From assembly GCA_959604355.1 (NCBI GenBank), contig CAUHAO010000001.1, forward strand, positions 779 through 64,778: DNA of 64,000 nucleotides. The letters are read 5' to 3'. Positions within the stretch are counted from its first letter, which is position 1. Each line of letters starts with the position of its first letter. Shown one piece after another: positions 5,927 through 47,871 of this stretch. This stretch comes from an uncultured Eubacteriales bacterium. GTDB lineage: Bacteria > Bacillota > Clostridia > Oscillospirales > UBA644. The notes under the pieces are model-generated. The model searched no databases and had not been told where the DNA came from. It saw only the letters and a program-made list of their open reading frames with translations. The translations under genes were made by a program, and so were the position numbers.

Positions 5927-6140
5927 TTGCGACTTCCACAGATTTAAGGTCGTGCTTCTGAAGCGTAAGCTCATAGCCTCGCAGCCGTATCTGCACAGGG
6001 TCACCGAGCGGTGCTGTCTTTATGATTTTTACGGATGTTCGCGGGGTCAAGCCCATGTCGAGCAGCCGCAGACGTAATTCGCCGTCTTTTACTGTCGTTA
6101 TTATTGCTTCTGAGCCCACGGAAAGTCTGTCGAGAGTCAT
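5910..6140 (-). CDS. feoA: FeoA-family small protein (SH3-like)
   Basis: The 76-aa sequence MTLDRLSVGSEAIITTVKDGELRLRLLDMGLTPRTSVKIIKTAPLGDPVQIRLRGYELTLQKHDLKSVEV matches the FeoA pattern (rL.dmGl.pG..v.v......gdP..i.l.g..l.L). A GAGG RBS precedes it. No feoB lies in the window. Confidence 0.8.
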   Translation of the reverse strand: MTLDRLSVGSEAIITTVKDGELRLRLLDMGLTPRTSVKIIKTAPLGDPVQIRLRGYELTLQKHDLKSVEVAIIKRG

Positions 6141-6185
6141 ATTCGGACCTCACGTTTTTTTACTATGTTTATGTGTAAAACCAGT

Positions 6186-6223
6186 AAAAATTACTCCCGA
6201 TATGCAAAATAACATATCGGGAG
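6186..6223 (-). terminator. Rho-independent terminator after yfbR-like gene
   Basis: 11-bp perfect stem CTCCCGATATG-N8-CATATCGGGAG (6194-6223). On the minus strand it is followed by a U-rich tract (plus-strand AAAAA 6186-6190). Confidence 0.65.
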
Positions 6224-6249
6224 ATATTTACATATAATATAAATACTGT

Positions 6250-6825: not shown

Positions 6826-6850
6826 AGTATCGTTGTTATGACAGGTATGA

Positions 6851-33279: not shown

Positions 33280-33947
33280 ATGAAATCCAACATAGCCGGT
33301 AAGACCTGTACCGCATGCTCGTCCCACGTCGAAAAGGCAGCAAGAAGCGTACAGGGCGTAAGGATACTTCCGCGGACGTTGTCGTTGTGCTGAAAAAACT
33401 CGGATGCGACGTGTGGATGGTGACGGGCGACAATGAGATGCCCGCGCGTGCCGTGGCTCAAAGCGTTGGCATGGATAACGTCATCGCGGGTGTGTTTCCG
33501 TCACAGAAAGATGAAAGAATACCAGCTTTGCGCTCCGACGGACGTTTTACCGTTATGGTCGGTGACGGTGTAAATGATGCGGCTGCGCTCACGAGCGCCG
33601 ATGGCGGACTTGCCATAGGCACGGGAATCGATATAGCGACGGAATCTGCCGACATAGTGTTGATGAAAAAGACTTGCGGGATGTGGTGGATTCAATACCT
33701 CTGAGCCGTGCGACGGTTCGCAGTATAAAGCAGAATCTTTTCTGAGCTATGATGTACAACTCTCTCGGAATACCTATTGCGACGGGAGCGCTCTATCCTA
33801 TATTTTGCGACGAGAGCGCTTTATCCTATATTCGGCATTCGATCGTCAGTTGTCTCCATGTTCGCTGCGGCGACAGGGCTGGGGTCGCTCTGTGTCGCTA
33901 TAAATGCTCTGCGATTAAAGAATTTCAATAAACAAGGAGAAAAAATC
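33280..33947 (+). pseudogene. copA: Decayed copper-translocating P-type ATPase (copA) remnant
   Basis: The N-terminal HMA fragment MKSNIAGKTCTACSSHVEKAARSVQGV is joined at about 33360, out of frame, to the C-terminal HAD region KDTSADVVVVLKKLGCDVWMVTGDN...MVGDGVNDAAAL...ESADIVLMKK. A frameshift follows near 33680 (DLRDVVDSIPLSRATVRSIKQNLF). There is a TGA where the conserved Trp of NLFWA belongs (33743-33745). A 19-nt near-identical direct repeat (33786-33804 / 33814-33832, offset 28 nt) shifts the frame again. Confidence 0.85.
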
Positions 33948-34163
33948 ATGAAAAAAACTCTTCTTATTGACGGAATGATGTGCATGCACTGCGCGGCACA
34001 TATCGAAAAAGCGCTCAAAGCCGTGGAAAGCGTGAGTTCAGTCGTAGTTGACCTTAACAGCAAGACGGCTGTCGTCACCGCCGCTTCCGATGTTTCAGAT
34101 GCGGTTCTCGGGAAGGCGGTCGAGGACGCCGGATACACAGTGACCGACATAAAGGGAGAATGA
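33948..34163 (+). CDS. copZ: Heavy-metal-associated (HMA) copper chaperone CopZ-like
   Basis: 71 aa: MKKTLLIDGMMCMHCAAHIEKALKAVESVSSVVVDL... with an MxCxxC metal site and AAGGAGAA RBS. The track ORF 33777 fuses it to the copA remnant frame. Confidence 0.85.
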   Translation: MKKTLLIDGMMCMHCAAHIEKALKAVESVSSVVVDLNSKTAVVTAASDVSDAVLGKAVEDAGYTVTDIKGE

Positions 34164-34937: not shown

Positions 34938-34966
34938 TTGACAAATCAATTCATGTGTGATAAAAT
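34938..34966 (+). promoter_or_regulatory. Sigma-A promoter upstream of tRNA-Leu
   Basis: TTGACA (34938-34943), a 17-nt spacer and TAAAAT (34961-34966). Confidence 0.6.
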
Positions 34967-35066: not shown

Positions 35067-35153
35067 GCGGGTATGGCGGAATTGGCAGACGCGCTAGATT
35101 CAGGTTCTAGTGAAAGCAATTTCATGCAGGTTCAAGTCCTGTTACCCGCACCA
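35067..35153 (+). tRNA. tRNA-Leu (anticodon CAG), type II with long variable arm, CCA encoded
   Basis: Hand-folded cloverleaf. The acceptor GCGGGTA pairs with TACCCGC. The D arm is GCG-GAATTGGCAGA-CGC. The anticodon arm is CTAGA-TTCAGGT-TCTAG. The variable arm is TGAAA-GCAA-TTTCA. The T arm is GCAGG-TTCAAGT-CCTGT. Discriminator A and CCA follow. Confidence 0.92.
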
Positions 35154-35157
35154 TCAT

Positions 35158-35207
35158 ACGGACTCAAGCCTTGTGCCATTCGGCATGTGGTTTCAGTCCG
35201 TTTTTTT
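35158..35207 (+). terminator. Terminator after tRNA-Leu
   Basis: ACGGACT...AGTCCGT outer stem with inner TGCC/GGCA pairing, followed by TTTTTTT. Confidence 0.6.
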
Positions 35208-35356
35208 ATACAAAAGCACATTTCTGACTGAAAACAGGGAGATCGGCCGCACAAGAGTAGGGATAAGAGCAAGGACGAAATCATTTCAGGGGGAGAAGCA
35301 GCGCATACGCGGCCGGTCTGACATATTATAAAACAAAAGGGAGATTTGGGTAAACA

Positions 35357-36301
35357 ATGAACAAAATCACAATCATAGGAACAGGAAGTGTCGGTTCTAC
35401 AATCGCGTATACGCTGACCCTCAACGGGTTAGCGTCGGAAATTGTAATGATCGACGTCAACACCGAGAAAGCTATCGGTGAAGCGCTTGATATAAGGCAG
35501 GGTACGCCGTTCTGCTCGCCATGCACCATATACGCGGGTGATTACAGCGATGCGGTCAACTCCGATATAGTCATTTTGACATCGGGTGTTGCACGCAAGC
35601 CGGGACAGTCGCGCCTTGACCTTGCACAGACGAATGTAAATATAGCTAAAAGCATAATTCCGAATATCATCCGTTACGCTCCGGACGCGAAATACGTCAT
35701 CGTCAGCAATCCGGTTGATATAATAACATATACTTTCAATAAAATTTCCGGACTTCCCGAAAAACAGATAATCGGATCCGGCACGATACTCGATACCGCG
35801 CGTCTGCGTTCGAGACTTTCGGAATGCTACAAAATAAATCAGAAGAACGTACATGCCTATGTTATGGGCGAACACGGAGACTCTGCGTTCGTGCCGTGGT
35901 CGCTTGCGAATATCTCCAACGTACCGATAGAGGCGCTCCAGGGCTCGATAAAGGGACTCAGTGATGAATATCCCGTCATAGATTTTGACGAGATCGAGAC
36001 TTACGTGCGTAAATCCGGCGCGCGTGTCATCGAGCGCAAAGGTGCAACGTTCTATGCTGTTTCGGTAGCAGTATGCCACATATGCAGATGTATCCTTTCG
36101 GGTATAAACACGACGATGACAGTCTCCACGCTCATGCACGGCGAATATGGTATAAATGACGTATGCCTGAGCGTACTCAACCTTGTCGGAGGCGGCGGTC
36201 TGCATGGAAAAGTATTGCCTCATCTTACGGATGAAGAGATACAGCAGCTGCGTCACAGCGAGAAATGCCTTAAAGAAGTCATGAAGGATATAAACATCTG
36301 A
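35357..36301 (+). CDS. L-lactate/malate dehydrogenase family enzyme (LDH-like fold, Arg at the substrate-discriminating position 102; probable malate dehydrogenase)
   Basis: Rossmann IIGTGSVGSTIAY, catalytic GEHGDS (His195), and LDTARLR (Asp168/Arg171). The specificity loop is SGVARKPGQSRLDL, versus GANQKPGETRLDL in B. stearothermophilus LDH. Confidence 0.85.
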   Translation: MNKITIIGTGSVGSTIAYTLTLNGLASEIVMIDVNTEKAIGEALDIRQGTPFCSPCTIYAGDYSDAVNSDIVILTSGVARKPGQSRLDLAQTNVNIAKSIIPNIIRYAPDAKYVIVSNPVDIITYTFNKISGLPEKQIIGSGTILDTARLRSRLSECYKINQKNVHAYVMGEHGDSAFVPWSLANISNVPIEALQGSIKGLSDEYPVIDFDEIETYVRKSGARVIERKGATFYAVSVAVCHICRCILSGINTTMTVSTLMHGEYGINDVCLSVLNLVGGGGLHGKVLPHLTDEEIQQLRHSEKCLKEVMKDINI

Positions 36302-36315
36302 CGGAGGGAACGAAA

Positions 36316-37692
36316 ATGGAATACCGTATAGAACACGATTCGATGGGCGAGATGAAAGTTCCCGCTGATAGACTGTGGGCAGCGCAGACCCAGAGAAGCC
36401 ATGAGAATTTTGAAATAGGAGTAGGTATCGAAACGATGCCTGCGGAGATAATACATGCTTTCGGCATACTGAAAAAGGCTGCGGCTCTTGCAAATCATGA
36501 GCTTAAACCCGAAAAGATGACCGATGAGAAACTCGCGGCGATAACCAAGGCATGCGACGAGGTCATCTCGGGAGAACTTAACGGTCATTTTCCGCTTGTC
36601 GTATGGCAGACGGGATCCGGCACGCAGTCCAATATGAACACCAATGAAGTCATCTGCAACCGCGCAAACCAGATCGCGGGAAAAGTTCTGACGCATCCCA
36701 ACGATGACATCAACATGAGCCAGTCGTCCAACGACACGTTCCCGACGGCTATGCATATTTCGGCGGTCGTGGCAATAGAAGATAAACTGATACCCGCAAT
36801 TGAACTTCTTATCGGGACTTTTAAACGTCTCGAAGCGGAAAACGAGGGCATTGTCAAATCCGGCAGAACGCATCTGCAGGACGCGACGCCGATAAAATTC
36901 AGCCAGGAGATAAGCGGCTGGCGCGCAAGCCTCGAACGTGACGCTGAGCTGCTGCGTGCCGCGGTCAAGCCTCTTTATGAACTCGCGCTCGGAGGTACGG
37001 CCGTCGGAACAGGGCTCAACGCACCGAAGGGCTTCGATACTCTTGTTGCGGCGAAAGCGGCGGCTCTTACGGGCAAACCATTCGTTACCGCGGCAAATAA
37101 ATTCCATGCCCTGACATCGAAAGATGAGCTCGTATTCGCTCACGGTGCTATAAAGGCGACGGCGTGCGACATGATGAAGATAGCAAATGACGTCCGTTGG
37201 CTTGCATCCGGTCCGCGCGACGGTCTGGGTGAGATACATATACCCGAAAACGAACCCGGCTCGTCGATAATGCCCGGCAAGGTCAACCCGACGCAATGCG
37301 AGGCGGTCACGATGGTTGCCGTGCAGGTAATTGGAAACGACGTGGCGGTGGGAATGGCGGCCTCTCAAGGCAACTTCGAGCTCAACGTGTTCATGCCCGT
37401 CGCGGCTTACAACTTTTTGCAGTCTGCGCGTCTGCTTGCGGAAGCGATAGTTTCGTTTAATAATAAATGCGCCGTAGGCATCACCGCGAATAAGGAGAAA
37501 ATGCATGATAATTTGCACAATTCCCTTATGCTCGTGACCGCGCTCAACCCGTATATCGGTTACGAAAACGCCGCGAAGACCGCAAAAAAGGCGTTCAAAG
37601 ACAATATTTCACTCAAACAGGCGTGTGTCGAACTCGGATTCCTCACAGAGGAGAGGTTCGACGAGGTGTTCCATCCGGAGCAGATGGTATAA
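36316..37692 (+). CDS. fumC: Class II fumarate hydratase
   Basis: Signature GSSIMPGKVNPTQCEA. The N-terminus MEYRIEHDSMGEMKVPADRLWAAQTQRS is typical of FumC. Confidence 0.95.
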   Translation: MEYRIEHDSMGEMKVPADRLWAAQTQRSHENFEIGVGIETMPAEIIHAFGILKKAAALANHELKPEKMTDEKLAAITKACDEVISGELNGHFPLVVWQTGSGTQSNMNTNEVICNRANQIAGKVLTHPNDDINMSQSSNDTFPTAMHISAVVAIEDKLIPAIELLIGTFKRLEAENEGIVKSGRTHLQDATPIKFSQEISGWRASLERDAELLRAAVKPLYELALGGTAVGTGLNAPKGFDTLVAAKAAALTGKPFVTAANKFHALTSKDELVFAHGAIKATACDMMKIANDVRWLASGPRDGLGEIHIPENEPGSSIMPGKVNPTQCEAVTMVAVQVIGNDVAVGMAASQGNFELNVFMPVAAYNFLQSARLLAEAIVSFNNKCAVGITANKEKMHDNLHNSLMLVTALNPYIGYENAAKTAKKAFKDNISLKQACVELGFLTEERFDEVFHPEQMV

Positions 37693-37706
37693 GGAGGAAC
37701 GGAGAA

Positions 37707-38504
37707 ATGATGAAGGTGAGTTACTTTCCGGGCTGTACATTAAAGAATAAGGCCCTGGATCTTGATACATATGCCCGCAGAAGCGCTCAGGTGCTGGGCG
37801 TTGAACTTGAAGAAACAGAAGACTGGCAGTGCTGTGGCGGTGCGTTTACGACCTCCGCCTCGGAGATCGCTACAAAGCTTTCTTCGGTACGCGCACTGAT
37901 ACAGGCAAAAAAGAAAGACCGCCCGCTCGTGACGGTCTGTTCGGCATGCCACAATGTAATAAAACAAACCAACCACGCGATACAGACCAACGAGGAGTTT
38001 GCAGCGCGTGTAAATAATTATTTGGGCGAAGACGGTCCTTACGACGGCTCCGTGCAGGTGTTGCACTATCTTGAACTTCTTCGTGACGTAATAGGGTTTG
38101 AAAAGATAAAACAGAGCGTCGTCAAACCCTTAACAGGCAGAAAAATTGCGGCGTATTACGGATGCCTGCTGCTGCGCCCGGGAAAGACGATGCGGATGGA
38201 TGACGTGGAAAATCCGAAGATAATGGAAGATTTTATCCGCGCCATAGGCGGCGAACCAGTCATATACGCGCTGCGCAACGAGTGCTGCGGCGGGTATATC
38301 GCGTTGGAACAGCCCGACTCTGCGAAAAAGAAGAGTGCGGCGGTACTTGACAATGCAGTTAACTGCGGGGCGGAGATGATAGTAACGGCGTGCCCGCTTT
38401 GTAAATACAACCTTGAGAAAAACGGCGGCGCAGACATACCCGTCGTATACTTTACGGAACTGCTTGCCGAAGCGTTGGGCGTAAAGGGGGATAAAAATGA
38501 ATAA
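37707..38504 (+). CDS. hdrB: HdrB-like CCG-domain protein (heterodisulfide reductase subunit B family)
   Basis: Two CCG domains: ...EDWQCCGGAF...TVCSACHN... and ...NECCGGY...TACPLCKYN. The start is ATG 37707 (AAGGAGGA RBS), not the track start 37623 inside fumC. Confidence 0.85.
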   Translation: MMKVSYFPGCTLKNKALDLDTYARRSAQVLGVELEETEDWQCCGGAFTTSASEIATKLSSVRALIQAKKKDRPLVTVCSACHNVIKQTNHAIQTNEEFAARVNNYLGEDGPYDGSVQVLHYLELLRDVIGFEKIKQSVVKPLTGRKIAAYYGCLLLRPGKTMRMDDVENPKIMEDFIRAIGGEPVIYALRNECCGGYIALEQPDSAKKKSAAVLDNAVNCGAEMIVTACPLCKYNLEKNGGADIPVVYFTELLAEALGVKGDKNE

Positions 38505-38883
38505 AGAAGACCTCAAAAAAGAGATAATCCGTTCGAGCGGTGTCAATGTACTCAAATGTATGCGCTGTGGCAAATGCTCCGGCACATGCCCCGCATACGA
38601 CGAGATGGAATATCATCCGCACGAATTCGTATATATGGTCGAAACCGGCGATATTGACGCGCTGATGAAGTCGCAGTCGATATATAAATGCCTGACGTGT
38701 TTCGCGTGCGTGGATCGATGCCCGAGAGGTGTCGAACCAGCGAAGATTGTGGAGGCAGTGCGCCTTGCGGTCATCCGTCAGAAGGGCAATAACCACCTTC
38801 TCGCTGATGAGATTCCGTCAAAGATCGACGAGGATATGCCCCAGCAGGCGATAGTCACCGCGTTCAGAAAATATACGAAATAA
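38497..38883 (+). CDS. hdrC: HdrC-like 2x[4Fe-4S] ferredoxin-type subunit
   Basis: CMRCGKCSGTCP and CLTCFACVDRCP motifs. There is an 8-nt overlap with the hdrB-like gene. Confidence 0.85.
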   Translation: MNKEDLKKEIIRSSGVNVLKCMRCGKCSGTCPAYDEMEYHPHEFVYMVETGDIDALMKSQSIYKCLTCFACVDRCPRGVEPAKIVEAVRLAVIRQKGNNHLLADEIPSKIDEDMPQQAIVTAFRKYTK

Positions 38884-38895
38884 GGAGGAAACGGA

Positions 38896-40890
38896 ATGCA
38901 AAGAATAGGTGTTTTCGTGTGCCATTGCGGCACAAACATAGCCGGAACGGTCGATGTAGCAGCCGTTTCCGAAGCTCTCGGACATGAGCCCGGCGTAGTA
39001 TTTTCGACAAATTATCAATACATGTGTTCCCAGGCGGGGCAGGACATGATAAAGGACGCGATAGCCGAGCATAAACTTACGGGTATCGTTATATGCTCCT
39101 GCTCACCGCGTATGCACGAAGCAACATTCCGCAAGACTGCCGCGGCGGCGGGAATAAACCCGTATATGATGGAAATAGCAAACATCCGCGAGCAATGCTC
39201 ATGGGTACACAAGGATATGCAGACCGGTACGGAGAAGGCGATAATCTTAGGCCGCGCCGCGATAGCGAAAGTTCATCTCAATACACCTCTTACTCCCGGA
39301 ACATCCGCTGTTACAAAGCGTGCGCTCGTCATCGGAGGCGGGATAGCGGGCATACAGACCGCGCTGGATATCGCAGATGCGGGATTTCCCGTCGATATAG
39401 TGGAAACGAAGCCTACCATCGGCGGCAAAATGGCTCAGCTTGACAAAACCTTCCCTACCCTCGACTGTGCAGCGTGTATCCTCACTCCGAAAATGGTCGA
39501 TGTGGCACAGAATGAGAATATCCGTATTTTCTCATATTCCGAAGTGACTGCGGTCAAAGGTTTCGTCGGCAATTTTGATGTTACAATAAAACGCAAAGCG
39601 CGTTACGTCAGAGAAGACATCTGCACGGGCTGCGGTGCATGCACCGAAAAATGTCCGCAGAAAAATGTTCCCAACGAGTTCAATCTCGGAATGGATAACC
39701 GACGCGCCATATATATCCCGTTTGCGCAAGCTGTTCCGAAGGTTGCGACAATCGATCCCGACAGATGCAATATGCTCAAAAACGGCAAATGCGGAGTGTG
39801 TGCGAAAGTCTGCACCGCGGGAGCTATAGATTATAAGGCAAAAGACGAATTTATCGAAGAAAAATACGGAGCGATAGTCGTCGCTACCGGCTTCAATCCC
39901 ATTTCGATGGAGAAATTCGACGAATTCGCATACTCTCAGTCCAAGGATGTCGTCACGTCGCTCGAATTTGAGCGTCTGATGAATGCCGCGGGCCCCACGG
40001 GCGGAAAACTGCTGCGCCCTTCCGACGGAGAACACCCCCACACGATAGTTTTCGTACAGTGCGTCGGCTCACGCTGTGCGGCATGTGAGGAAAAGGGTAA
40101 GGAATACTGCTCCAAGATATGCTGTATGTATACCGCGAAGCACGCGATGCTCACGCGCGACAAATATCCCGACACGGACGTTTATGTATTCTATATCGAT
40201 GTGCGTACTCCCGGCAAGAATTTCGATGAATTCTACCGCCGCGCGGTCGAGGAATACGGCGTGCATTATATAAAAGGCATGGTAGGAAAAGTCACACCGG
40301 AGGGCAAAAAGCTCTTGGTTCGCGCGTCTGACCTCATTGCTGATAAACAGCTCAATATCGAGGCGGACCTCGTCGTACTCGCGGCGGCGATAGAGCCCGA
40401 CAAATCCGCGCGTTCTCTTGCAACGATGCTTACAGCGTCCATGGATACGAACGATTTCTTCACAGAGGCGCATCCGAAGCTGCGTCCCGTCGAAAGCCCG
40501 ACAGCGGGAGTTTTCCTCTCGGGTGCGTGCCAGGGGCCGAAAGATATTCCCGAGACGGTCGCTCAGGCCGGTGCCGCGGCGTCGAAAGTAATCGGGTTAC
40601 TTTGCAAAGATAAGCTCACCGGCAACCCCTGTGTTGCATATCCCGACGAAATGATGTGCAACGGTTGCTCGGCATGCGAAAAAGTATGCCCCTACGGTGC
40701 GATAACTTATGTGGATAAAGAATTCCGTATGCCCGATCGCACGACGCGTATTCGCCGTGTGGCACAGGTCAATGAAGCCGTCTGTCAGGGCTGCGGCGCC
40801 TGCACGGTAGCATGCTGTTCCGGCGCTATGGATCTCAAAGGCTTTAAGAATAAACAAATAATGGCGGAGGTGGACGCGATATGCCGATAA
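38896..40890 (+). CDS. hdrA: HdrA-like FAD- and FeS-containing subunit (heterodisulfide reductase subunit A family)
   Basis: N-terminus GVFVCHCGTNIAG and FAD fold ALVIGGGIAGIQTALDIADAG. Ferredoxin-type motifs are CTGCGACTEKCP, CGVCAKVCTAGAI, CNGCSACEKVCPYGAI and CQGCGACTVAC. Confidence 0.9.
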   Translation: MQRIGVFVCHCGTNIAGTVDVAAVSEALGHEPGVVFSTNYQYMCSQAGQDMIKDAIAEHKLTGIVICSCSPRMHEATFRKTAAAAGINPYMMEIANIREQCSWVHKDMQTGTEKAIILGRAAIAKVHLNTPLTPGTSAVTKRALVIGGGIAGIQTALDIADAGFPVDIVETKPTIGGKMAQLDKTFPTLDCAACILTPKMVDVAQNENIRIFSYSEVTAVKGFVGNFDVTIKRKARYVREDICTGCGACTEKCPQKNVPNEFNLGMDNRRAIYIPFAQAVPKVATIDPDRCNMLKNGKCGVCAKVCTAGAIDYKAKDEFIEEKYGAIVVATGFNPISMEKFDEFAYSQSKDVVTSLEFERLMNAAGPTGGKLLRPSDGEHPHTIVFVQCVGSRCAACEEKGKEYCSKICCMYTAKHAMLTRDKYPDTDVYVFYIDVRTPGKNFDEFYRRAVEEYGVHYIKGMVGKVTPEGKKLLVRASDLIADKQLNIEADLVVLAAAIEPDKSARSLATMLTASMDTNDFFTEAHPKLRPVESPTAGVFLSGACQGPKDIPETVAQAGAAASKVIGLLCKDKLTGNPCVAYPDEMMCNGCSACEKVCPYGAITYVDKEFRMPDRTTRIRRVAQVNEAVCQGCGACTVACCSGAMDLKGFKNKQIMAEVDAICR

Positions 40891-41321
40891 ACGATGAAAA
40901 ATACAGACCGCTTATCGTGGCGTTCTGCTGCAACTGGTGCTCTTACGCGGGCGCGGACCTTGCGGGCAACAACCGTCTGGCGTATCCTGCGGACGTGAAG
41001 ATAATCCGCGTGCCTTGCTCCTGCCGCGTCAATCCCATGTTCGTTCTGCGCGCGTTCCAGAGAGGCGCAGACGGCGTTATCCTTTGCGGTTGCCATCCCG
41101 GTGACTGCCATTATACTTCGGGCAACTATTATACCCGCCGCCGTATGGCGCTGCTGTTCTCGATGCTCGACTACCTCGGTATCGAACGTGAGCGTACCCG
41201 CGTGGAATGGGTATCCGCTGCCGAAGGCGCGAAGTTTGCAGCGACAATGGAAGATTTCTGCGGTACCGTCGCCGCACTCGGCCCGAATAAGAGACTGGAG
41301 GATCTGAGATGCAAAAAATAA
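40881..41321 (+). CDS. mvhD: MvhD/FlxD-like [2Fe-2S] subunit (methyl-viologen-reducing hydrogenase delta subunit family)
   Basis: FCCNWCSYAGADLAG...IRVPCSCRVNP...GADGVILCGCHPGDCHY is the MvhD signature. There is a 10-nt overlap with hdrA. Confidence 0.88.
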   Translation: MPINDEKYRPLIVAFCCNWCSYAGADLAGNNRLAYPADVKIIRVPCSCRVNPMFVLRAFQRGADGVILCGCHPGDCHYTSGNYYTRRRMALLFSMLDYLGIERERTRVEWVSAAEGAKFAATMEDFCGTVAALGPNKRLEDLRCKK

Positions 41322-42301
41322 AACGTGAAATCCTCATAGACAAAGCAAAACAGTTGCTTGCGGACGGCACAGTCAGCCGTGTCCTCGGATGGAAAGAGGG
41401 CGAATTCTGTTACGATGTCACTCCCGCGGTCTTCCGTGACGCGAAAGCTCTTGAAAAGGATTTCATTTTCGGGGATTTCTGCGGTGCGAACTTCTCCAAA
41501 TATCTCGTTTCCGAGACAAGGAAGGACGACGGTAAAGTCCTCGTATTTCTCAAACCCTGTGATACATACAGTTTTAATCAACTTCTCAACGAACATCGTT
41601 TTGACCGCGAAAAGGTTTATGCCGTAGGTATTCCGTGCGAAGGTATGCTTGACGTGAGCAAGATCCGCAAAGCGGCAGAAAGCTTCACGGACATTGACAC
41701 TGATGGAGACAAAGTCACGGTTCATACGCTCTATGACGGCGACACAGTACTTGACCGTGCGGAAATTCTCGCGGAGCGCTGCCTGAGCTGTAAGTCCAAG
41801 AAGCATGTCGCGTACGACGAGCTTCTCGGAGAAGACGGAGAAGTTGCCGACAGCAATCGCTTTGACGAGGTTGAAAAGCTTGAAAAGATGACTCCCGACG
41901 AGCGTTTCGCGTTCTGGCAGGGAGAGCTTTCACGCTGCATACGCTGCAATGCGTGCAGAGACGTATGCCCCGCTTGCACTTGCGAAAAATGCGTTTTCGA
42001 CAATCCCGAATCGGGCGTTGAAAACAAGGCAATAAGCGACTCTTTTGAAGAGAAAATGTTCCATATCATCCGTGCGTTCCATGTCGCGGGACGCTGCACG
42101 GACTGCGGCGAATGCTCCCGCGTATGTCCGCAGCATATTCCTCTGCACCTGCTCAACCGTAAATTCATAAAAGACATAAACGCCTTCTACGGCGATTATC
42201 AGGCAGGCGCAACTGTGGGGCAGCGTGCTCCGCTGACTGATTTCACGACCTCAGACCTTGAGCCTTCCGACGCGGTGAAAGGAGGAAACGGCAATGCGTA
42301 A
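41309..42301 (+). CDS. FeS oxidoreductase subunit, FlxC / sulfhydrogenase-beta / AsrA-like (tentative)
   Basis: 330 aa with CIRCNACRDVCPACTC and CTDCGECSRVCP motifs. The architecture parallels that of the next gene. There is a 13-nt overlap with mvhD. Confidence 0.65.
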   Translation: MQKIKREILIDKAKQLLADGTVSRVLGWKEGEFCYDVTPAVFRDAKALEKDFIFGDFCGANFSKYLVSETRKDDGKVLVFLKPCDTYSFNQLLNEHRFDREKVYAVGIPCEGMLDVSKIRKAAESFTDIDTDGDKVTVHTLYDGDTVLDRAEILAERCLSCKSKKHVAYDELLGEDGEVADSNRFDEVEKLEKMTPDERFAFWQGELSRCIRCNACRDVCPACTCEKCVFDNPESGVENKAISDSFEEKMFHIIRAFHVAGRCTDCGECSRVCPQHIPLHLLNRKFIKDINAFYGDYQAGATVGQRAPLTDFTTSDLEPSDAVKGGNGNA

Positions 42302-43325
42302 AATACAGACAAATAATCTTGACGTTCTCTTTGCTGCGATATCCGCAACGATGAAGCTCTATATTCCCGTCGATACGGATGCCGGCGCGCAGTATATGCC
42401 GTGGCGCGATGGCGTGAAATTTTCATCAGCGCTCAATACCGCCCGCAGCGCAAAAGACTTCTTTTTTCCACAGTCCGAGGACCTTATGGCGTTCAAAGTC
42501 GAAGGCAAACGCATTGAAATAATCGACACACGCAAAGAGTCAGAGGATTTTGCAGTATTCGGCGTGCGTGCGTGCGACGTGCGCGGTTTTGAGGTGCTTG
42601 ACCGCGTCTTTCTGAACGAACCTGTGGATACATATTACAAAAACAGACGAGAGCACGGCATTATAATCTCTCTTGCCTGCAACCGTCCCTCCGAGACCTG
42701 CTTCTGCGGCACTTTCGGCATCGACGCGTCGCAGCCCGGTGGCGATATCGTGTGCCACATGACGTCGGACTTCCTTTATCTCGACGCAAAGACCGAAAAA
42801 GGCGAAGCTCTGCTTTCGTCGCTCGGCAGTATATGCGAAGAGTGCGACGGCGCGGCGGTAGAGGCAGAGAAAGAAATCATCCGCGGACGTTTGGAAAAGC
42901 TTCCGCTTGCAGACGTGAAGGCGGACAAATTCGGCAAGGACAAGACGAAAGAATTCTTTGATGATCCCGCATGGGCTGAGCTTTCCGAAGCATGCCTCGG
43001 CTGCGGCACATGTACTTTCGTATGTCCGACATGCCAGTGTTACGATATAAAGGATTTCAAGACAAATGACGGCGTGCGCCGTTTCCGTTGTTGGGATTCG
43101 TGCATGTATTCGGACTTTACCAGGATGTCCGCAGGACAGCCGAGACTGACACAGCTTGAACGCTTTCGCCAGCGCTTCATGCACAAGCTCGTTTATTATC
43201 CCACCAACAACGAAGGCGTTTTCAGTTGCGTCGGCTGCGGCAGATGTATCTCAAAATGCCCGATAAAGATGAACATAGTAAAAGTCATGAAAAAACTCGG
43301 GGAGGGGGATAAGAACGATGACTGA
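42294..43325 (+). CDS. FeS oxidoreductase subunit, FlxB / anaerobic sulfite reductase subunit A (AsrA)-like
   Basis: 343 aa with CLGCGTCTFVCPTCQCYD and CVGCGRCISKCP motifs. There is an 8-nt overlap with the upstream gene. Confidence 0.7.
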   Translation: MRKIQTNNLDVLFAAISATMKLYIPVDTDAGAQYMPWRDGVKFSSALNTARSAKDFFFPQSEDLMAFKVEGKRIEIIDTRKESEDFAVFGVRACDVRGFEVLDRVFLNEPVDTYYKNRREHGIIISLACNRPSETCFCGTFGIDASQPGGDIVCHMTSDFLYLDAKTEKGEALLSSLGSICEECDGAAVEAEKEIIRGRLEKLPLADVKADKFGKDKTKEFFDDPAWAELSEACLGCGTCTFVCPTCQCYDIKDFKTNDGVRRFRCWDSCMYSDFTRMSAGQPRLTQLERFRQRFMHKLVYYPTNNEGVFSCVGCGRCISKCPIKMNIVKVMKKLGEGDKNDD

Positions 43326-44151
43326 CATGAGAGATCCGCTCATTCCCGTTGTAGGCGAGGTCGTCGATATCCGCCTGGATACGCCCGATATAAAGACTTT
43401 CCGTGTCGTTACACCCGACGGCAAGAAGGCGTTTGACCACCGCCCCGGACAATGTGCTATGCTTTCGATCCCCGGTGTCGGTGAGGCCATGTTTTCCATA
43501 ACATCGTCCCCGACAAATACCGGATATATGGAGTTCTCCATTAAAAAATGCGGTTGTGTTACCGATTTCCTCCACAGTATGGAAGTCGGACAGCAGATTA
43601 CTATCCGCGGCCCTTACGGCAAGCCTTTCCCGGTAGACGACGCGTTTGTCGGAAAAAATCTTTTGTTTATCGCCGGCGGCGTCGGCCTCGCGCCTCTGCG
43701 CTCTGTCATAAATTATTGCCGCCATTATCGCGATCGTTACGGCAAGATTGACATTGTTTACGGCTCACGCTCCAAGGACGATCTGCTTGACTATAAGGAG
43801 ATCGTCGACGAGTGGGCAAATGATACGGACGTACATGTGCACCTGACCATCGACCGAGAGCAGGAAGGTTGGGACGGACATGTCGGATTCGTTCCGAACT
43901 ATGTCAAGGAATTGAGCTTTGATACCAATAAGATAGCTGTACTTTGCGGTCCGCCGATAATGATAAAGTTTACGCTTGCAGGGCTGTACGAGCTTGGATT
44001 TGAGAAAACTCAGATATACACGACGCTCGAACTGCGTATGAAATGCGGCATCGGTAAATGCGGACGCTGCAACGTCGGCTCAAAATACGTCTGCAAGGAC
44101 GGACCCGTGTTCCGTTTTGACGAACTGGACGAACTTCCGGACGAATATTGA
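43318..44151 (+). CDS. FAD/NAD(P)H-binding FNR-like subunit with C-terminal [2Fe-2S] (FlxA / AsrB / PyrK-like)
   Basis: RPGQCAMLSIPGVGEAMFSITSSP (flavin barrel), LLFIAGGVGLAPLRSV (NAD(P)H fold), and C-terminal CGIGKCGRCNVGSKYVCKDGPVF. Confidence 0.82.
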   Translation: MTDMRDPLIPVVGEVVDIRLDTPDIKTFRVVTPDGKKAFDHRPGQCAMLSIPGVGEAMFSITSSPTNTGYMEFSIKKCGCVTDFLHSMEVGQQITIRGPYGKPFPVDDAFVGKNLLFIAGGVGLAPLRSVINYCRHYRDRYGKIDIVYGSRSKDDLLDYKEIVDEWANDTDVHVHLTIDREQEGWDGHVGFVPNYVKELSFDTNKIAVLCGPPIMIKFTLAGLYELGFEKTQIYTTLELRMKCGIGKCGRCNVGSKYVCKDGPVFRFDELDELPDEY

Positions 44152-44174
44152 TAAAGTGAGAGGACTGAAGAATA

Positions 44175-44849
44175 ATGGAGAATACGGTAAATATATATCT
44201 TTTCGGCAAACAGTATACCGTGCCGGAGGATCTTACGATCATGCGTGCCATGGAATATTCGGGCTATCAGCTCGTGCGTGGCTGCGGTTGCCGCAATGGT
44301 TTTTGCGGCGCGTGTGCGACGATATACCGCATAAAAGGGCAGAGAGAACTCAAGACCTGCCTGGCGTGCCAGACGAAGGTCGAGGAAGGCATGTACATCG
44401 CGACGCTTCCTTTCTTTCCGCTCGTAAAACAAATCTACGACATCGAAAAAATCTCCCCCACCCAGCAGATAATGATGCAGCTTTATCCCGAGATTTACGC
44501 CTGTGTCGGCTGTAACGCCTGCACGAAAGCATGCACCCAGAGCCTTGATGTTATGCAATACATAGCTTACGCTCAGCGCGGCGAATTTGATAAATGCGCG
44601 GAGGAGTCTTTCGACTGTGTTATGTGCGGAGTATGTTCTTCACGTTGCCCCGCGGGCATATCCCATCCGCAGGTCGCAATGCTTGCGCGCCGTATAAACG
44701 GCAAATATCTCGCGCCAAAGACCGAGCATCTTGAAAACCGTGTAAAAGAGATAAACGACGGTACCTTCACGGATCTCATAGAGGCGCTTATGGGCAAACC
44801 AGTCGAAGAACTCAAAGAACTTTACAACAACAGAGAAATAGAGAAATAA
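44175..44849 (+). CDS. Succinate dehydrogenase/fumarate reductase iron-sulfur subunit-like protein (FrdB/SdhB-like)
   Basis: N-terminal 2Fe-2S-type GCGCRNGFCGACA...CLAC, then CVGCNACTKAC and CVMCGVCSSRCP cluster motifs. 224 aa. Confidence 0.75.
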   Translation: MENTVNIYLFGKQYTVPEDLTIMRAMEYSGYQLVRGCGCRNGFCGACATIYRIKGQRELKTCLACQTKVEEGMYIATLPFFPLVKQIYDIEKISPTQQIMMQLYPEIYACVGCNACTKACTQSLDVMQYIAYAQRGEFDKCAEESFDCVMCGVCSSRCPAGISHPQVAMLARRINGKYLAPKTEHLENRVKEINDGTFTDLIEALMGKPVEELKELYNNREIEK

Positions 44850-44860
44850 GGAGGGGCGAC

Positions 44861-46462
44861 ATGTATCCGGAAAGTATGAAAAAATCTCTTGCGGCTGTCG
44901 AGGCGGCACGAGAGGCGAATATAGCGTATGAGCCCGCGCGAATGACGGCTCAGCAGAAGGAAGATCTTCTTGCACAGTATCACCCCGACTACAAAAAAAG
45001 CGAATTCCGTACTCTTGAAATAGGGCCCAACAAAGGCGAAGCCGTACCGAAGGAGCTTTGTCAGATGCTTCAGGCCAACAGCCGTATCAGCGCGGCAGAT
45101 GTTGATCTTGATAATCCGAAATACGACGTTGACGTGCTCGTTATCGGCGGAGGCGGCGCGGGTTCTTCCGCGGCAATAGAGGCGGACAACGCCGGCGCAA
45201 ATGTAATGATAGTTACAAAACTCCGTATCGGTGACGCGAACACGATGATGGCGGAGGGCGGCATTCAGGCGGCGGATAAGCCCAACGACAGCCCCGCGAT
45301 ACACTTTCTTGACGCTTTCGGAGGCGGACACTTTGCGGCAAAGCGCGAATTGCTTTCCAAACTCGTATGTGACGCTCCCGAAGCAATACAATGGCTCAAT
45401 TCGCTGGGCGTGGAGTTCGATAAAGCTCCCGACGGCACGATGATAACCACCCACGGCGGCGGTACATCCCGCAAGCGTATGCACGCGGCAAAAGATTATT
45501 CCGGCGCGGAAATAATGCGTACATTGCGTGACGAAGTTCTCAACAGAGGTATCCCTGTCGTTGACTTTACGTCCGCGGTAGAGCTTATCCTTGACGAGAA
45601 CGGCAACGCTGCAGGCGCTGTGCTGATGAACATGGAAACAAAAGAGCTCATGGTCGCGCGTGCAAAGACCGTTATTATCGCGACCGGCGGTGCGGGACGT
45701 ATGCACTACCAGGGTTTCCCGACATCAAACCATTACGGTGCGACGGCGGACGGACTTGTGCTCGGCTACCGTGTAGGTGCAAAACTTCTTTACGCGGATA
45801 CTCTTCAGTATCATCCCACGGGCGCGGCATTCCCGCAGCAGATATTCGGTGCTCTTGTTACCGAAAAAGTGCGTTCGCTCGGTGCAAAACTGGTAAACAG
45901 AGACGGAAAGGTGTTCATGCATCCGCTCGAAACGCGTGACGTTGCGGCGGCGTCTATAATCCGTGAATGCTCGACTCGCGGAGAGGGCGTTGATACGGGT
46001 GACGGACTTGCGGTCTGGCTTGACACGCCGATGATCGAGAAAATCGGCGGCGAAGGCACGATAGAAAAACGTATTCCGGCCATGATGCGTATGTTTGCGC
46101 AGTACGGCATAGATATCCGCAAAGAGCCCATACTTGTTTATCCGACTCTGCACTATCAGAATGGCGGACTTGACATAAACGTTGACGGGGAAACGACGAA
46201 CGTTCGCAATCTCTATGTTGCGGGTGAGGCTGTCGGCGGAATCCACGGCAGAAACAGGCTTATGGGAAACTCCCTGCTCGATATAATCGTTTTCGGACGC
46301 AGTGCGGGCAAGAACGCCGCGGCAAGAGCAAAAGATGTTTCCGTCGGTGCGCTTACTCTTGACCATATAGCGAAATTTAAGGCGGAAATGGAAAAAGCGG
46401 GCATAAAGACAGACGCCGTGTCGCCGAAACTGCTGCCAGACTACACCCGTAAAAATAGATAA
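44861..46462 (+). CDS. Fumarate reductase/succinate dehydrogenase/L-aspartate oxidase-family flavoprotein (FrdA-like, soluble type)
   Basis: VLVIGGGGAGSSAAIEA (FAD), LQYHPTG, PLETRDVAA, TLHYQNGGL and GEAVGGIHGRNRLMGNSLLD are the catalytic blocks. Asn replaces the His used for covalent FAD (ANTMMAEGG versus SHTVAAEGG). There is an N-terminal extension of about 95 aa. Confidence 0.85.
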   Translation: MYPESMKKSLAAVEAAREANIAYEPARMTAQQKEDLLAQYHPDYKKSEFRTLEIGPNKGEAVPKELCQMLQANSRISAADVDLDNPKYDVDVLVIGGGGAGSSAAIEADNAGANVMIVTKLRIGDANTMMAEGGIQAADKPNDSPAIHFLDAFGGGHFAAKRELLSKLVCDAPEAIQWLNSLGVEFDKAPDGTMITTHGGGTSRKRMHAAKDYSGAEIMRTLRDEVLNRGIPVVDFTSAVELILDENGNAAGAVLMNMETKELMVARAKTVIIATGGAGRMHYQGFPTSNHYGATADGLVLGYRVGAKLLYADTLQYHPTGAAFPQQIFGALVTEKVRSLGAKLVNRDGKVFMHPLETRDVAAASIIRECSTRGEGVDTGDGLAVWLDTPMIEKIGGEGTIEKRIPAMMRMFAQYGIDIRKEPILVYPTLHYQNGGLDINVDGETTNVRNLYVAGEAVGGIHGRNRLMGNSLLDIIVFGRSAGKNAAARAKDVSVGALTLDHIAKFKAEMEKAGIKTDAVSPKLLPDYTRKNR

Positions 46463-46486
46463 TCATTCGGAAAGAAGAAAAAGAAA

Positions 46487-46840
46487 ATGACACTTGAAAC
46501 TTTAACAAATCTTTTTGAAGCACTCACTATATTCTGTTTCGGCTTGTCCTGGCCGATATCCATCCGCAAATCCTTGATTTCACGTACCGCAAAGGGCAAG
46601 AGCCTTTTCTTTGAGGTTTTCCTGCTTATAGGTTATGCTTTCGGTATAGCACGCAAAGTCATCCAGGTATCCTGCATGGGCCATGTTATTGAATTCACGA
46701 GCCTGGAAGGTTGGATATTTTTCCTGAGCTTCTTCTTCTATATTCTTAACTTTATCGAGATTTCCATCGACGTATGTCTCTACTTCCGCAACTCCAGACT
46801 TGACCGTGAGGCTCAAGAACGCAACCTCGCCAAAAACTAA
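46487..46840 (+). CDS. Small 3-TM membrane protein (PQ-loop/SemiSWEET-like motif, tentative)
   Basis: 117 aa with three hydrophobic helices. The first ends in ..GLSWPISIRKSLISRTAKGKSLFF, which resembles a PQ-loop. It starts 24 nt after the frdA-like stop. Confidence 0.45.
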   Translation: MTLETLTNLFEALTIFCFGLSWPISIRKSLISRTAKGKSLFFEVFLLIGYAFGIARKVIQVSCMGHVIEFTSLEGWIFFLSFFFYILNFIEISIDVCLYFRNSRLDREAQERNLAKN

Positions 46841-46921: not shown

Positions 46922-47833
46922 ATGACCGATATTTCAAAAGAAGTTTTTGAAAAGTACCAGGTGCGGAAAACAGAGGCACAAAAGACAAAGTTCATAGATT
47001 TCATCCTCTCGAAATTCCCTGATGCAAAAGTAGAAAAGGGCGGCTTCCTTAACAGCAGAAATATCGTTGTCGGGGACGTCGATAATGCGAAAATCGTTCT
47101 CGGAGCGCACTATGACACGTGCTCGGTGCTTCCGATACCGAATTTCATCATGCCGAAAAATATAGCTCTTTCGCTGCTTTACGGTTTGTTAATCGCTATT
47201 CCCGTAATAATCATCGCGGGCGCGGCTACATTTGCGGTAAAAGCGCTGACGGATAGTATTCTTCTTGCGGAATTGACGTATTTTGCCGTGCTTATCGCGC
47301 TTTTTGCGATTTTGTTCGCGGGAAAGCCGAATAAACACACCGCAAACGACAATACGTCCGGCGTCATCACACTTCTTGAGATAATGGAGGCTATGAGTGA
47401 CGACGAAAAACAAAAAACGGCGTTCGTGTTTTTCGATAATGAGGAAAACGGGCTTTTCGGGTCTATGTTTTTTTCAAAGATTCATAAAGACGCGATGAAA
47501 GACAAGCTTCTGCTCAACTTCGACTGCGTGTCGGACGGCGACGAGATACTCATTATTCCGGGCAAAAAAATTCCCGAGACGCAGAAAGACTTGCTGTGTG
47601 CGGCATATCACGGCGCGGACGGCAAAAACGTCACCGTCGAAAAAAGTGCGGCTGGGATATATTATCCATCCGACCAGAGGAATTTTCCGTGCGGCATCGG
47701 TGTCGCGGCGTTCAAGAAGGGCAAATTCGGGCTTTATCTTGACCGAATACATACCGTGCGCGATACGGCGTTTGACGAACGCAATGTGGAGCTGCTGTGT
47801 GGCTGCACGGCAGAACTCGTAAAAAACATATAA
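46922..47833 (+). CDS. M28-family zinc peptidase with internal TM segments
   Basis: GAHYDT, NTSGV and FFDNEENGLFGS (metal ligands of the M28 aminopeptidase family). A hydrophobic insert spans about residues 80-135. Confidence 0.7.
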   Translation: MTDISKEVFEKYQVRKTEAQKTKFIDFILSKFPDAKVEKGGFLNSRNIVVGDVDNAKIVLGAHYDTCSVLPIPNFIMPKNIALSLLYGLLIAIPVIIIAGAATFAVKALTDSILLAELTYFAVLIALFAILFAGKPNKHTANDNTSGVITLLEIMEAMSDDEKQKTAFVFFDNEENGLFGSMFFSKIHKDAMKDKLLLNFDCVSDGDEILIIPGKKIPETQKDLLCAAYHGADGKNVTVEKSAAGIYYPSDQRNFPCGIGVAAFKKGKFGLYLDRIHTVRDTAFDERNVELLCGCTAELVKNI

Positions 47834-47840
47834 AGCAAAA

Positions 47841-47871
47841 CCCGTCGGCAAAAACCGACGGGTATATTTTT
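47841..47871 (+). terminator. Rho-independent terminator
   Basis: CCCGTCGG-CAAAAA-CCGACGGG followed by TATATTTTT. Confidence 0.8.

Follow-up and report, generated by a model that had tools for sequence, protein, structure and literature searches.

The FlxABCD-HdrABC system of Desulfovibrio vulgaris, reportedly described by Ramos et al. in 2015 in the context of ethanol metabolism and with DsrC as its proposed acceptor, and the thiol:fumarate reductase TfrAB of Methanothermobacter, reportedly the work of Heim et al. in 1998, are among the known systems closest to a gene cluster at positions 35357-46840 of a 64,000-nucleotide stretch of DNA (contig CAUHAO010000001.1, assembly GCA_959604355.1), hereafter the window, from an uncultured Eubacteriales bacterium of the Oscillospirales lineage UBA644. 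As judged from the encoded proteins, a complete Hdr-Flx module appears here with an FrdAB-like pair as its one substrate-specific partner, and this pair would be fed by the malate dehydrogenase (Mdh) and the fumarase FumC encoded beside it. The cluster probably specifies an Hdr-Flx-fed soluble NAD(P)H:fumarate reductase, and the window is a gut-type Clostridia member of a predicted, biochemically uncharacterised class.

All seven subunit types of the D. vulgaris system recur in the window together with their cofactor motifs. The gene order flxABCD-hdrABC of Desulfovibrio, without frd genes, is replaced by hdrBCA-flxDCBA, and neither the cluster nor the 64-kb window holds a DsrC-like or other thiol-carrier gene. 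The methanogen MvhADG-HdrABC complex (5odc and related structures) has a full-length homologue of the window HdrA, as well as homologous HdrB, HdrC and MvhD; the window, however, has no hydrogenase, its donor would be FlxABC, and the proposed acceptor is fumarate via FrdAB and not heterodisulfide. Among named families, the window flavoprotein scores best with TfrAB, whose FrdA-type flavin receives electrons from CCG clusters, although the scores stay far under the equivalog cutoffs (718, 385), TfrB appears to be split into FrdB and HdrB, and the flavoprotein lacks the C-terminal domain of TfrA and carries an extra N-terminal extension of 90 residues. The donor of TfrAB is CoM-SH plus CoB-SH, whereas in the window it would be NADH via HdrA. 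The window shares with membrane-bound FrdABCD and SdhABCD the catalytic residues in the flavoprotein and, in the iron–sulphur (FeS) subunit, the 2Fe-2S motif; it differs in lacking an anchor, the histidine for covalent FAD and the Succ_DH_flav_C domain, and in having two 4-Cys motifs in place of a 3Fe-4S motif. The soluble five-subunit NADH-dependent fumarate reductase of Hydrogenobacter thermophilus, described as irreversible (Miura 2008, as summarised in PMC13147460), is the only characterised soluble multi-subunit one that we found cited, going by that summary. It is soluble, NADH-linked, of several subunits and equipped with an FrdA homologue, as predicted for the window; its genes are scattered in the genome and the summary does not report it as bifurcating (PMC13147460).

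The 'succinate operon' of Pseudoclostridium thermosuccinogenes encodes fumarate hydratase, a seven-gene Flx-Hdr set, fumarate reductase and a hypothetical protein that may transport succinate; its expression is high, with co-regulation of about 4-fold, and addition of H2 abolishes succinate formation (PMC7282089). NADH-dependent fumarate reduction coupled to ferredoxin reduction was proposed in the 2019 preprint of Koendjbiharie and van Kranenburg, as used in PMC7282089. By gene order, lengths and descriptions this operon (CDQ83_RS03365-03315) matches the window, with fumC, seven Flx-Hdr genes, two frd genes and a small hypothetical gene in that order; RS03320 (1602 nt, 533 aa) and RS03325 (675 nt, 224 aa) are identical in length to the window FrdA and FrdB, while fumC measures 1365 versus 1377 nt and hdrB 783 versus 798 nt in P. 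thermosuccinogenes and the window, respectively. The LDH-type mdh lies directly upstream in the window operon, whereas the upstream RS03370 of P. thermosuccinogenes is 342 nt away and not co-regulated; the small downstream protein has about 83 aa there and 117 aa in the window, whose host belongs to a mesophilic gut or rumen lineage, unlike P. thermosuccinogenes.

Rubin-Blum et al. (2019) put forward an HdrABC-FlxABCD-KorABCD-TfrAB complex for tubeworm symbionts, with an HdrA that would bifurcate the electrons of NADH between Kor/ferredoxin and TfrAB, directly or via DsrC (PMC6315080). A homologous Endoriftia cluster is co-expressed (Mitchell et al. 2024, PMC11636981), and a 2026 survey repeats the bifurcating Hdr-Flx/fumarate idea (PMC13147460). 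The symbiont clusters resemble the window in having Flx-Hdr genes together with a TfrAB-like fumarate reductase and a proposed NADH-bifurcating HdrA, and their interleaved arrangement has an equivalent in one of our comparison loci (L085). The symbionts are autotrophs using the reductive tricarboxylic acid cycle (rTCA), with interleaved genes for 2-oxoglutarate:ferredoxin oxidoreductase (kor), whereas kor genes are absent from the window, which has a fermentative look (mdh, fumC, exporter). The novelty implied by an earlier note on this DNA, written from the sequence alone, is thus lost, since the same hypothesis was published for P. thermosuccinogenes (PMC7282089) and for sulfur-oxidising symbionts (PMC6315080); the fumarate-coupled Flx-Hdr idea has been in print since 2019, twice. 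New here are the breadth of its distribution, an archaeal core without Flx, an FrdB-FrdA fusion, the reading of FrdB and HdrB as a split TfrB, and the atypical architecture of FrdA.

The Hdr-Flx module and the fumarate reductase-like pair

The cluster consists of 12 open reading frames (ORFs), all co-oriented on the + strand:

35357..36301, + strand: NAD-dependent dehydrogenase of the lactate dehydrogenase (LDH) family, predicted malate dehydrogenase (Ldh_1_N 1.5e-42, Ldh_1_C)
36316..37692, + strand: class II fumarate hydratase FumC, malate to fumarate (Lyase_1 4e-105, FumaraseC_C)
37707..38504, + strand: HdrB-like protein with two CCG domains (CCG x2), two predicted non-cubane 4Fe-4S sites
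38497..38883, + strand: HdrC-like protein with two 4Fe-4S clusters, dicluster (Fer4_8/Fer4_17, HdrC TIGR03290 2.4e-18)
38896..40890, + strand: full-length HdrA with FAD and N-terminal, inserted and C-terminal ferredoxin-type cluster domains, predicted bifurcating flavoprotein
40881..41321, + strand: MvhD/FlxD 2Fe-2S connector (FlpD 1.2e-53, VhuD 1.2e-37)
41309..42301, + strand: FlxC-like FeS protein (Fer4_8/9/17, weak FrhB_FdhB_C match)
42294..43325, + strand: FlxB-like FeS protein of the sulfhydrogenase beta/AsrA family (Fer4_22 1e-29)
43318..44151, + strand: FlxA, NAD(P)H-binding FAD flavoprotein with C-terminal 2Fe-2S site (FAD_binding_6, NAD_binding_1, DHODB_Fe-S_bind)
44175..44849, + strand: divergent FrdB/TfrB-N-like FeS subunit, 224 aa (Fer2_4 and Fer4 families)
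44861..46462, + strand: divergent FrdA/TfrA-like flavoprotein, predicted fumarate-reducing subunit with non-covalent FAD, 533 aa (FAD_binding_2, residues 91-472, 1.1e-67)
46487..46840, + strand: small three-helix membrane protein of unknown family, 117 aa (AlphaFold2 pLDDT 79, helices 3-31, 40-62 and 73-116)

Their order is LDH-family mdh, fumC, hdrB, hdrC, hdrA, mvhD/flxD, flxC, flxB, flxA, frdB, frdA and the gene of the small membrane protein. An ORF check returned, at their coordinates, all eleven same-strand genes and the twelfth at 46487 that the earlier note had read, and its figures for the junctions (five overlaps of 8-13 nt, other gaps of 11-24 nt) proved exact: the overlaps are 38497/38504 (8 nt), 40881/40890 (10 nt), 41309/41321 (13 nt), 42294/42301 (8 nt) and 43318/43325 (8 nt), and the gaps at the remaining junctions are 14, 14, 12, 23, 11 and 24 nt. 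A GGAGG/GGAG-type ribosome-binding site lies just 5' of 10 of the 12 genes, frdB and the gene of the 117-aa protein being preceded by purine-rich stretches only. The true start of hdrB is the ATG at 37707, after the ribosome-binding site AAGGAGG, and the mechanical ORF start at 37623 was rejected. No convincing internal terminator was found in the cluster, as the note had held, weak sites (26) being no commoner than in shuffled sequence (18.7 +/- 4.4); the first strong hairpin 3' of the cluster is at 47840-47863. Domain searches likewise bore out that the cluster contains no gene for a hydrogenase, formate dehydrogenase, MetFV, DsrC or a membrane anchor.

Conservation was followed in a scan of one genome per species, in which at least 596 genomes had an FrdA relative and the best 80 loci were compared; locus counts take in only the contigs that reach the gene in question. 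The HdrB-like protein matches methanogen HdrB (7bkb_B) at 2e-36 and, among NCBIfam models, SdhE/MfrE (1.3e-43), which is the CCG subunit of type E fumarate reductases, HdrB (3.4e-43) and the TfrB C-terminus (2e-12), all under the cutoffs; its motif cysteines, 10 of 10, are kept in 52/52 loci, and the eight cysteines of HdrC in 53/53. HdrA aligns over residues 3-662 with residues 5-649 of M. wolfeii HdrA (5odc_A, 3e-206) and scores 786 bits with NCBIfam HdrA2; its cluster cysteines are kept in 53-56 of 56 loci, and its identity is 88-90% among gut relatives and 42-55% to archaea. The mvhD gene was found in 63/63 loci. FlxC, a weakly typed FeS protein named from its position in the D-C-B-A order, is encoded in 64/64 loci and has 16 conserved cysteines, 15 of them present in all 64 and C58 in 60/64. 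FlxB, whose gene was found in 66/66 loci, matches ShyB (9.5e-53), AsrA (2.6e-40) and the P. furiosus sulfhydrogenase I beta subunit (9nez_B, 4.8e-47). FlxA, the predicted electron entry point, matches HydG (4e-60) and AsrB (8e-58) and keeps C243, C248, C251 and C259 in 72/72 loci. All subunit features of FlxABCD-HdrABC are therefore present, namely the FlxA domains, two FeS subunits, an MvhD-type FlxD, an HdrA with FAD and ferredoxin domains, a two-CCG HdrB and a dicluster HdrC, and the HdrB, HdrC, HdrA, MvhD and Flx-type assignments of the note agree with the Pfam, NCBIfam and PDB comparisons.

The FeS subunit FrdB carries an SdhB-type 2Fe-2S motif (C39-x4-C44-x2-C47...C62) followed by two full CxxCxxCxxxC motifs, and 15 cysteines are kept in 74-76 of 76 loci. 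The 'SdhB/FrdB-like' label holds for the 2Fe-2S motif; the resemblance to SdhB in the PDB is at motif level only (E about 8e-4), and the best named match is the TfrB N-terminus (2.4e-10, profile positions 19-100 only). The HdrB protein in turn matches TfrB profile positions 413-487, while hdrB and frdB are separate genes 5.7 kb apart. Since FrdB matches the N-terminus of TfrB and HdrB its C-terminus, the two together look like a TfrB split in two.

For the flavoprotein, the designation 'SdhA/FrdA-like' stood as regards the substrate site, although the Succ_DH_flav_C domain gave no match and TfrA scores best. Comparison with E. coli FrdA (6e-49) demonstrated that H318, T334/E335, R359, H431 and R466 correspond to H232, T244/E245, R287, H355 and R390, respectively, and the fumarate-site residues H318, T334, E335, R359, H431 and R466 are invariant in 80 loci. 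The NCBIfam scores were 331 bits for TfrA (NF004900), 279 for SdhA/FrdA, 272 for NadB and 208 for flavocytochrome c, all under the cutoffs; TfrA thus remains the best-scoring family even though its equivalog cutoff of 718 was missed, and the C-terminal 125 positions of its profile are unmatched. A conserved N-terminal extension of 90 residues has no Pfam match. At the position of the covalent-FAD residue His44 of E. coli, the flavoprotein has N127, with Asn in 79/80 loci (one His) and invariant in nine distant relatives. E. coli FrdA variants in His44 and soluble fumarate reductases, which lack the covalent-FAD histidine, favour fumarate reduction over succinate oxidation; the absence of covalent FAD would therefore favour one-way fumarate reduction and argues against succinate oxidation. 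Grouping with L-aspartate oxidases or APS reductases, which the note had named as a refuting outcome, is not indicated by these scores. L-Aspartate oxidase was rejected on the score (TIGR00551, 272 bits versus a cutoff of 452.75) and on the FrdB partner, which is always present and once fused; the alpha subunit of adenylyl sulphate or phosphoadenylyl sulphate (APS/PAPS) reductase was rejected on a marginal PDB match (8a8o_A, 9.4e-07, compared with 1e-49 to 1e-60 for FrdA/SdhA).

Of the two enzymes that would supply fumarate, FumC is above the equivalog cutoff (TIGR00979, 696.9 bits versus 664.75), and fumC was found in 49/51 related loci; mdh was found in 44/50 related loci with room for it. 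The 'Mdh-like' reading of gene 1 was sound as to the LDH/MDH family, and weaker as to the models: the protein lies above the NCBIfam L-LDH cutoffs (351.7 versus 339, 325.6 versus 303.55) and under those for MDH (NF004863, 269 versus 283; TIGR01763, 210 versus 352), and its overall sequence places it in the LDH clade. Residue R80, in GVARKPG, aligns with the Gln102 specificity position of L-LDHs and is Arg in 43/43 orthologues; PDB 1y6j, deposited as C. thermocellum L-LDH, has the same Arg at this position. According to the Q102R specificity rule, reportedly from Wilks et al. in 1988, Arg at 102 (LDH numbering) selects oxaloacetate. Because of the Arg at the Gln102 position and this rule, gene 1 is read as a putative malate dehydrogenase of LDH descent, converting oxaloacetate to malate. 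It may represent a natural LDH-to-MDH switch of the Q102R type that annotation pipelines would call LDH.

Conservation of the unit across lineages

More than 8000 close database relatives of FrdA, from Clostridia, Ruminococcaceae and similar sources, are named only 'FAD-dependent oxidoreductase'. The best 80 of the at least 596 loci come from metagenome-assembled genomes (MAGs) of gut and rumen Clostridia and from the cultured Yeguia hominis NSJ-40. The core hdrB-hdrC-hdrA-mvhD-flxC-flxB-flxA-frdB-frdA is collinear and co-oriented in 52/52 to 75/75 informative loci, so that the co-occurrence of hdr-mvhD with frdA and, in 49/51 loci, fumC, which the note had proposed to look for, is indeed found. 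It is clear that the linkage of these genes exceeds chance.

A search of every 50%-identity cluster for distant relatives retrieved full-length FrdA relatives that carry the N-terminal extension at identities as low as about 40%. Maledivibacter halophilus has equal gene content in a changed order, fumC-frdB-frdA-hdrB-hdrC-hdrA-mvhD-flxC-flxB-flxA. In Candidatus Bathyarchaeota (L081:744-9415), genes for 2-oxoacid:ferredoxin oxidoreductase are followed by hdrA-mvhD-hdrC-hdrB-frdB-frdA, and a second archaeon (L087:2406-11656) has hdrB-frdB-frdA, with an hdrA/mvhD fusion, a ferredoxin gene and genes for oxidoreductases in divergent orientation; neither archaeal cluster encodes a Flx or hydrogenase module alongside. 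An FCB-group-like metagenome contig has kor genes interleaved with hdrA, a flxD/C fusion, flxB, flxA, hdrC, hdrB, frdB and frdA. In a further MAG (L086), the place of FlxABC is taken by a GltD/NfnB-like protein of 1479 aa (3263-7702) with Fer4_20 and several Pyr_redox_2 and FeS domains; its gene lies between hdrB and mvhD, and frdBA, sucCD and, farther on, a methylmalonyl-CoA mutase gene come after it. The best-conserved proteins across distant lineages are FrdA (54-61% identity) and FrdB (50-59%, in Bathyarchaeota, WOR-3 and other bacteria). A natural FrdB-FrdA fusion of 727 aa (P0242) has an FrdB-like N-terminal half with a 2Fe-2S and two 4Fe-4S motifs, followed by the FrdA-like flavoprotein, the two being joined through the stretch that makes up the N-terminal extension of the window FrdA. 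From these comparisons, the conserved unit appears to be HdrABC-MvhD-FrdAB, combined with a varying electron-input module.

Proposed electron route and rival explanations

The cluster would represent the cytoplasmic reductive branch from oxaloacetate through malate and fumarate to succinate in a quinone-independent fermenter. NADH would be oxidised at FlxA (FAD, 2Fe-2S), from which electrons would pass via FlxB/FlxC and the 2Fe-2S cluster of MvhD to the FAD of HdrA. From there, the high-potential electron would travel by way of HdrC and the pair of CCG-type clusters in HdrB straight to the FeS chain of FrdB and on to the non-covalent FAD of FrdA, where fumarate would be reduced, and the low-potential electron would reach ferredoxin (Fd) through the ferredoxin domains of HdrA. 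The sum would be 2 NADH + fumarate + Fd(ox) -> 2 NAD+ + succinate + Fd(red), and succinate would leave through the small membrane protein or, in most relatives, an AAEx permease. The sequences themselves show which genes are present, the residues for cofactor binding and catalysis, and the conserved linkage of Hdr with Frd; from these we infer a physical Hdr-Flx-Frd complex, NADH as the donor, direct transfer from HdrB to FrdB, and bifurcation, with export presumably by the small membrane protein. We lean modestly towards this explanation in its complete form, with bifurcation and export; taken by itself, the proposal that the Hdr-Flx-Frd enzyme also reduces ferredoxin is close to evenly balanced, perhaps tilting towards the affirmative.

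Direct transfer from HdrB to FrdB is favoured because FrdAB contains no thiol-oxidising module, because TfrB is a fused equivalent, and because hdrB adjoins the frd pair in archaea and in Maledivibacter. As for the energetics, fumarate reduction with NADH yields -58 kJ/mol (PMC13147460), and the reduction of ferredoxin by a second NADH is estimated from standard potentials to cost roughly +25 to +30 kJ, so the former would suffice for the latter.

Several points weigh against this explanation. Bifurcation by any Flx-Hdr complex is, to our knowledge, supported by genetics and by analogy with Mvh-Hdr, and a full HdrA is by itself no proof of it. No purification, assay or structure of this enzyme type was found in the searchable literature, outside which subscription-only papers lie, or in the 2026 copy of the PDB, where HdrA comes from methanogen complexes only; no enzyme of the type has thus been purified, as far as the searchable literature goes. 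No gene for a ferredoxin, Rnf, Ech or hydrogenase is present within the 64-kb window. Both CCG motifs of HdrB are fully intact, which is compatible with a disulfide substrate, and a WOR-3 contig of 15 kb has frdBA without adjacent hdr genes. The AlphaFold2 model of FrdA, from a shallow alignment, had a mean pLDDT of 57.5 and was not used, and the match to the P. thermosuccinogenes proteins is one of gene order, lengths and descriptions.

The same chain might simply be a soluble NADH:fumarate reductase without bifurcation, in which Flx-Hdr serves as a wire between NADH and FrdAB, ferredoxin stays oxidised and the surplus energy is lost. The irreversible five-subunit enzyme of H. thermophilus would be a precedent (Miura 2008, as summarised in PMC13147460), and the cluster has no ferredoxin gene of its own. 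A full-length HdrA with both ferredoxin domains, kept with MvhD under strong constraint, would however be a costly wire; succinate formation in P. thermosuccinogenes is sensitive to H2, in keeping with ferredoxin coupling (PMC7282089), and in other lineages the cluster adjoins ferredoxin-consuming 2-oxoacid oxidoreductases. We regard this simpler enzyme as unlikely, though it is the strongest competitor.

Two enzymes could also be linked by a thiol/disulfide carrier, Flx-Hdr reducing a disulfide (DsrC-like or of low molecular weight) at HdrB and the resulting thiol being oxidised by fumarate through FrdAB. Such an option is kept in published models (PMC6315080, with thiols mentioned in PMC7282089) and agrees with the intact CCG motifs of HdrB and with TfrA as the nearest family of the flavoprotein. 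Nevertheless, a CCG domain is missing from FrdB, and no other recognisable thiol-oxidising module occurs in FrdA or FrdB, so FrdAB alone could not oxidise a thiol; moreover, the cluster has no DsrC-like gene, and hdrB stands directly beside frdB-frdA in archaea and Maledivibacter. These points make a carrier quite improbable.

Flx-Hdr is said, in Ramos et al. 2015, to occur in many anaerobes without Frd, and this, like the WOR-3 contig of 15 kb with frdBA and no neighbouring hdr genes, would suit a cluster whose parts are co-located and functionally separate, with FrdAB fed by another donor such as reduced ferredoxin and Flx-Hdr serving an unrelated acceptor. Against it, the genes are co-regulated in P. 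thermosuccinogenes (PMC7282089) and the core synteny is perfect in all informative gut loci. The linkage also outlives rearrangement of the gene order and the phylogenetic distance between domains of life, and we consider functional separation very improbable.

The least probable reading, to which we give hardly any weight, is that the flavoprotein is not a fumarate reductase at all and acts as L-aspartate oxidase, as a different enoate reductase or within a reverse complex that oxidises succinate with confurcation; NadB models nearly equal the SdhA/FrdA models (272 versus 279 bits) and FAD_binding_2 enzymes of gut bacteria reduce varied substrates, but the score is under every NadB cutoff, an FeS partner subunit, even fused, is atypical of NadB, all residues of the C4-dicarboxylate site are kept, fumC and mdh lie upstream in the operon, sucCD or genes of succinate-exporter families occur as neighbours, and non-covalent FAD argues against succinate oxidation.

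The bifurcating Hdr-Flx-Frd enzyme may be taken one step further, in a proposal that we hold tentatively and just short of probable. In such a supercomplex, HdrA would bifurcate NADH electrons to ferredoxin and, with HdrC/HdrB as a plain wire into FrdB-FrdA, to fumarate, without any thiol; HdrABC-MvhD-FrdAB would be an ancient exchangeable module of Clostridia, other bacteria and Bathyarchaeota with varied inputs (FlxABC, a GltD-like giant protein, none nearby), and an unrecognised route to succinate and, via reduced ferredoxin, to conserved energy for hundreds of species of gut and rumen Clostridia that lack quinones.

Succinate export, surroundings and significance

The 117-aa protein encoded 3' of frdA has no Pfam or NCBIfam match even at E<=10. 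Its 1866 homologues, all named 'hypothetical' and none with a Pfam domain, have the invariant motif FCFGLSWPISIRKS..TAKGKS / FCFGLSWPISIRKS...KGKSL. Foldseek against the PDB returned nothing below E 0.6. The idea of a SemiSWEET/PQ-loop protein, prompted by this motif, found no support, given no Pfam match at E<=10 and no SemiSWEET in the Foldseek top 50; E. coli SdhD at rank 25 (E=3) lends no weight to an anchor role. The slot 3' of frdA holds the small membrane protein in 23/79 loci (it is absent from 56/79) and an Asp-Al_Ex (AAEx) permease of 420 aa in 48/79, for example at L019:11628-12890. The AAEx family includes a succinate exporter (PMC9527358), and the equivalent small gene of P. thermosuccinogenes, which is co-regulated, has been described as potentially transporting succinate (PMC7282089). 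The alternation of two unrelated membrane proteins in the same slot suggests that both serve product export, and the 117-aa protein may be a small dicarboxylate exporter or an accessory protein of an exporter, a candidate for succinate export. In Yeguia hominis, the AAEx permease gene is followed (L019:12925-15042) by genes for a Rex-type repressor (Put_DNA-bind_N and CoA_binding), a thioredoxin-like 2Fe-2S protein and a SpoIIE-domain protein.

Two further features flank the operon:

35067-35153, + strand: tRNA-Leu(CAG), between the strongest promoter-like site and gene 1
46922-47833, + strand: M28-family peptidase with a hydrophobic central segment, 81 nt 3' of the gene of the 117-aa protein

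The strongest promoter-like site (34938-34966, an 11/12 match, with TG) was rejected as the operon promoter, as it more probably serves the tRNA-Leu, and no clear operon promoter was found in 35154-35356. An imperfect hairpin with a T-run occurs at about 35160-35210, 3' of the tRNA. A Rex operator 5' of the operon is unsupported: the pattern TTGTTAAN4TTAACAA with <=3 mismatches gave 6 sites versus 3.3 expected, one of which, at 35347-35364 with 3 mismatches, overlaps the start codon, and neither a Rex-like gene nor a convincing Rex box was seen in the window. There is no terminator between the gene of the 117-aa protein and that of the M28 peptidase, which may be co-transcribed with the operon; it was rejected as part of the unit, being missing from 80/80 related loci.

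No quinone-synthesis genes were found within the 64-kb window, the remainder of which is ordinary Firmicute chromosome (hrcA-grpE-dnaK-dnaJ, addBA, lepA-hemN, uvrC). Two adjacent short ORFs at 33315-34163 (+), of 129 aa (the C-terminal part of a HAD/P-type ATPase hydrolase domain only) and 128 aa (an HMA heavy-metal domain), resemble the remains, or an unusual split form, of a metal-transporting ATPase. At 8260-9706 (+), a VTC-domain protein is followed by a DUF4956 membrane protein, a pair reminiscent of polyphosphate polymerase-like systems and not common among annotated genomes of Firmicutes.

If the enzyme is bifurcating, energy would be conserved during fumarate reduction with no need for quinones, cytochromes or a membrane-bound reductase. 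Roughly 58 kJ/mol from the NADH:fumarate couple would then be turned into reduced ferredoxin for Rnf, hydrogenases or 2-oxoacid synthases, a carbon-carbon double bond would constitute a new acceptor class for Hdr-type flavin-based bifurcation, and the profit that Clostridia without respiratory chains draw from succinate would be explained. The archaeal and rTCA-linked variants bear on ferredoxin reduction for reductive carboxylation. Tractable organisms for tests are P. thermosuccinogenes, for which CRISPR interference (CRISPRi) tools exist (PMC9044749), Yeguia hominis NSJ-40 and Maledivibacter halophilus. Gut ecology would be touched as well: succinate is a cross-feeding and signalling metabolite that is usually credited to Bacteroidota and Negativicutes, and the characteristic flavoprotein is carried by at least 596 species-level genomes, mostly of uncultured gut and rumen Clostridia.

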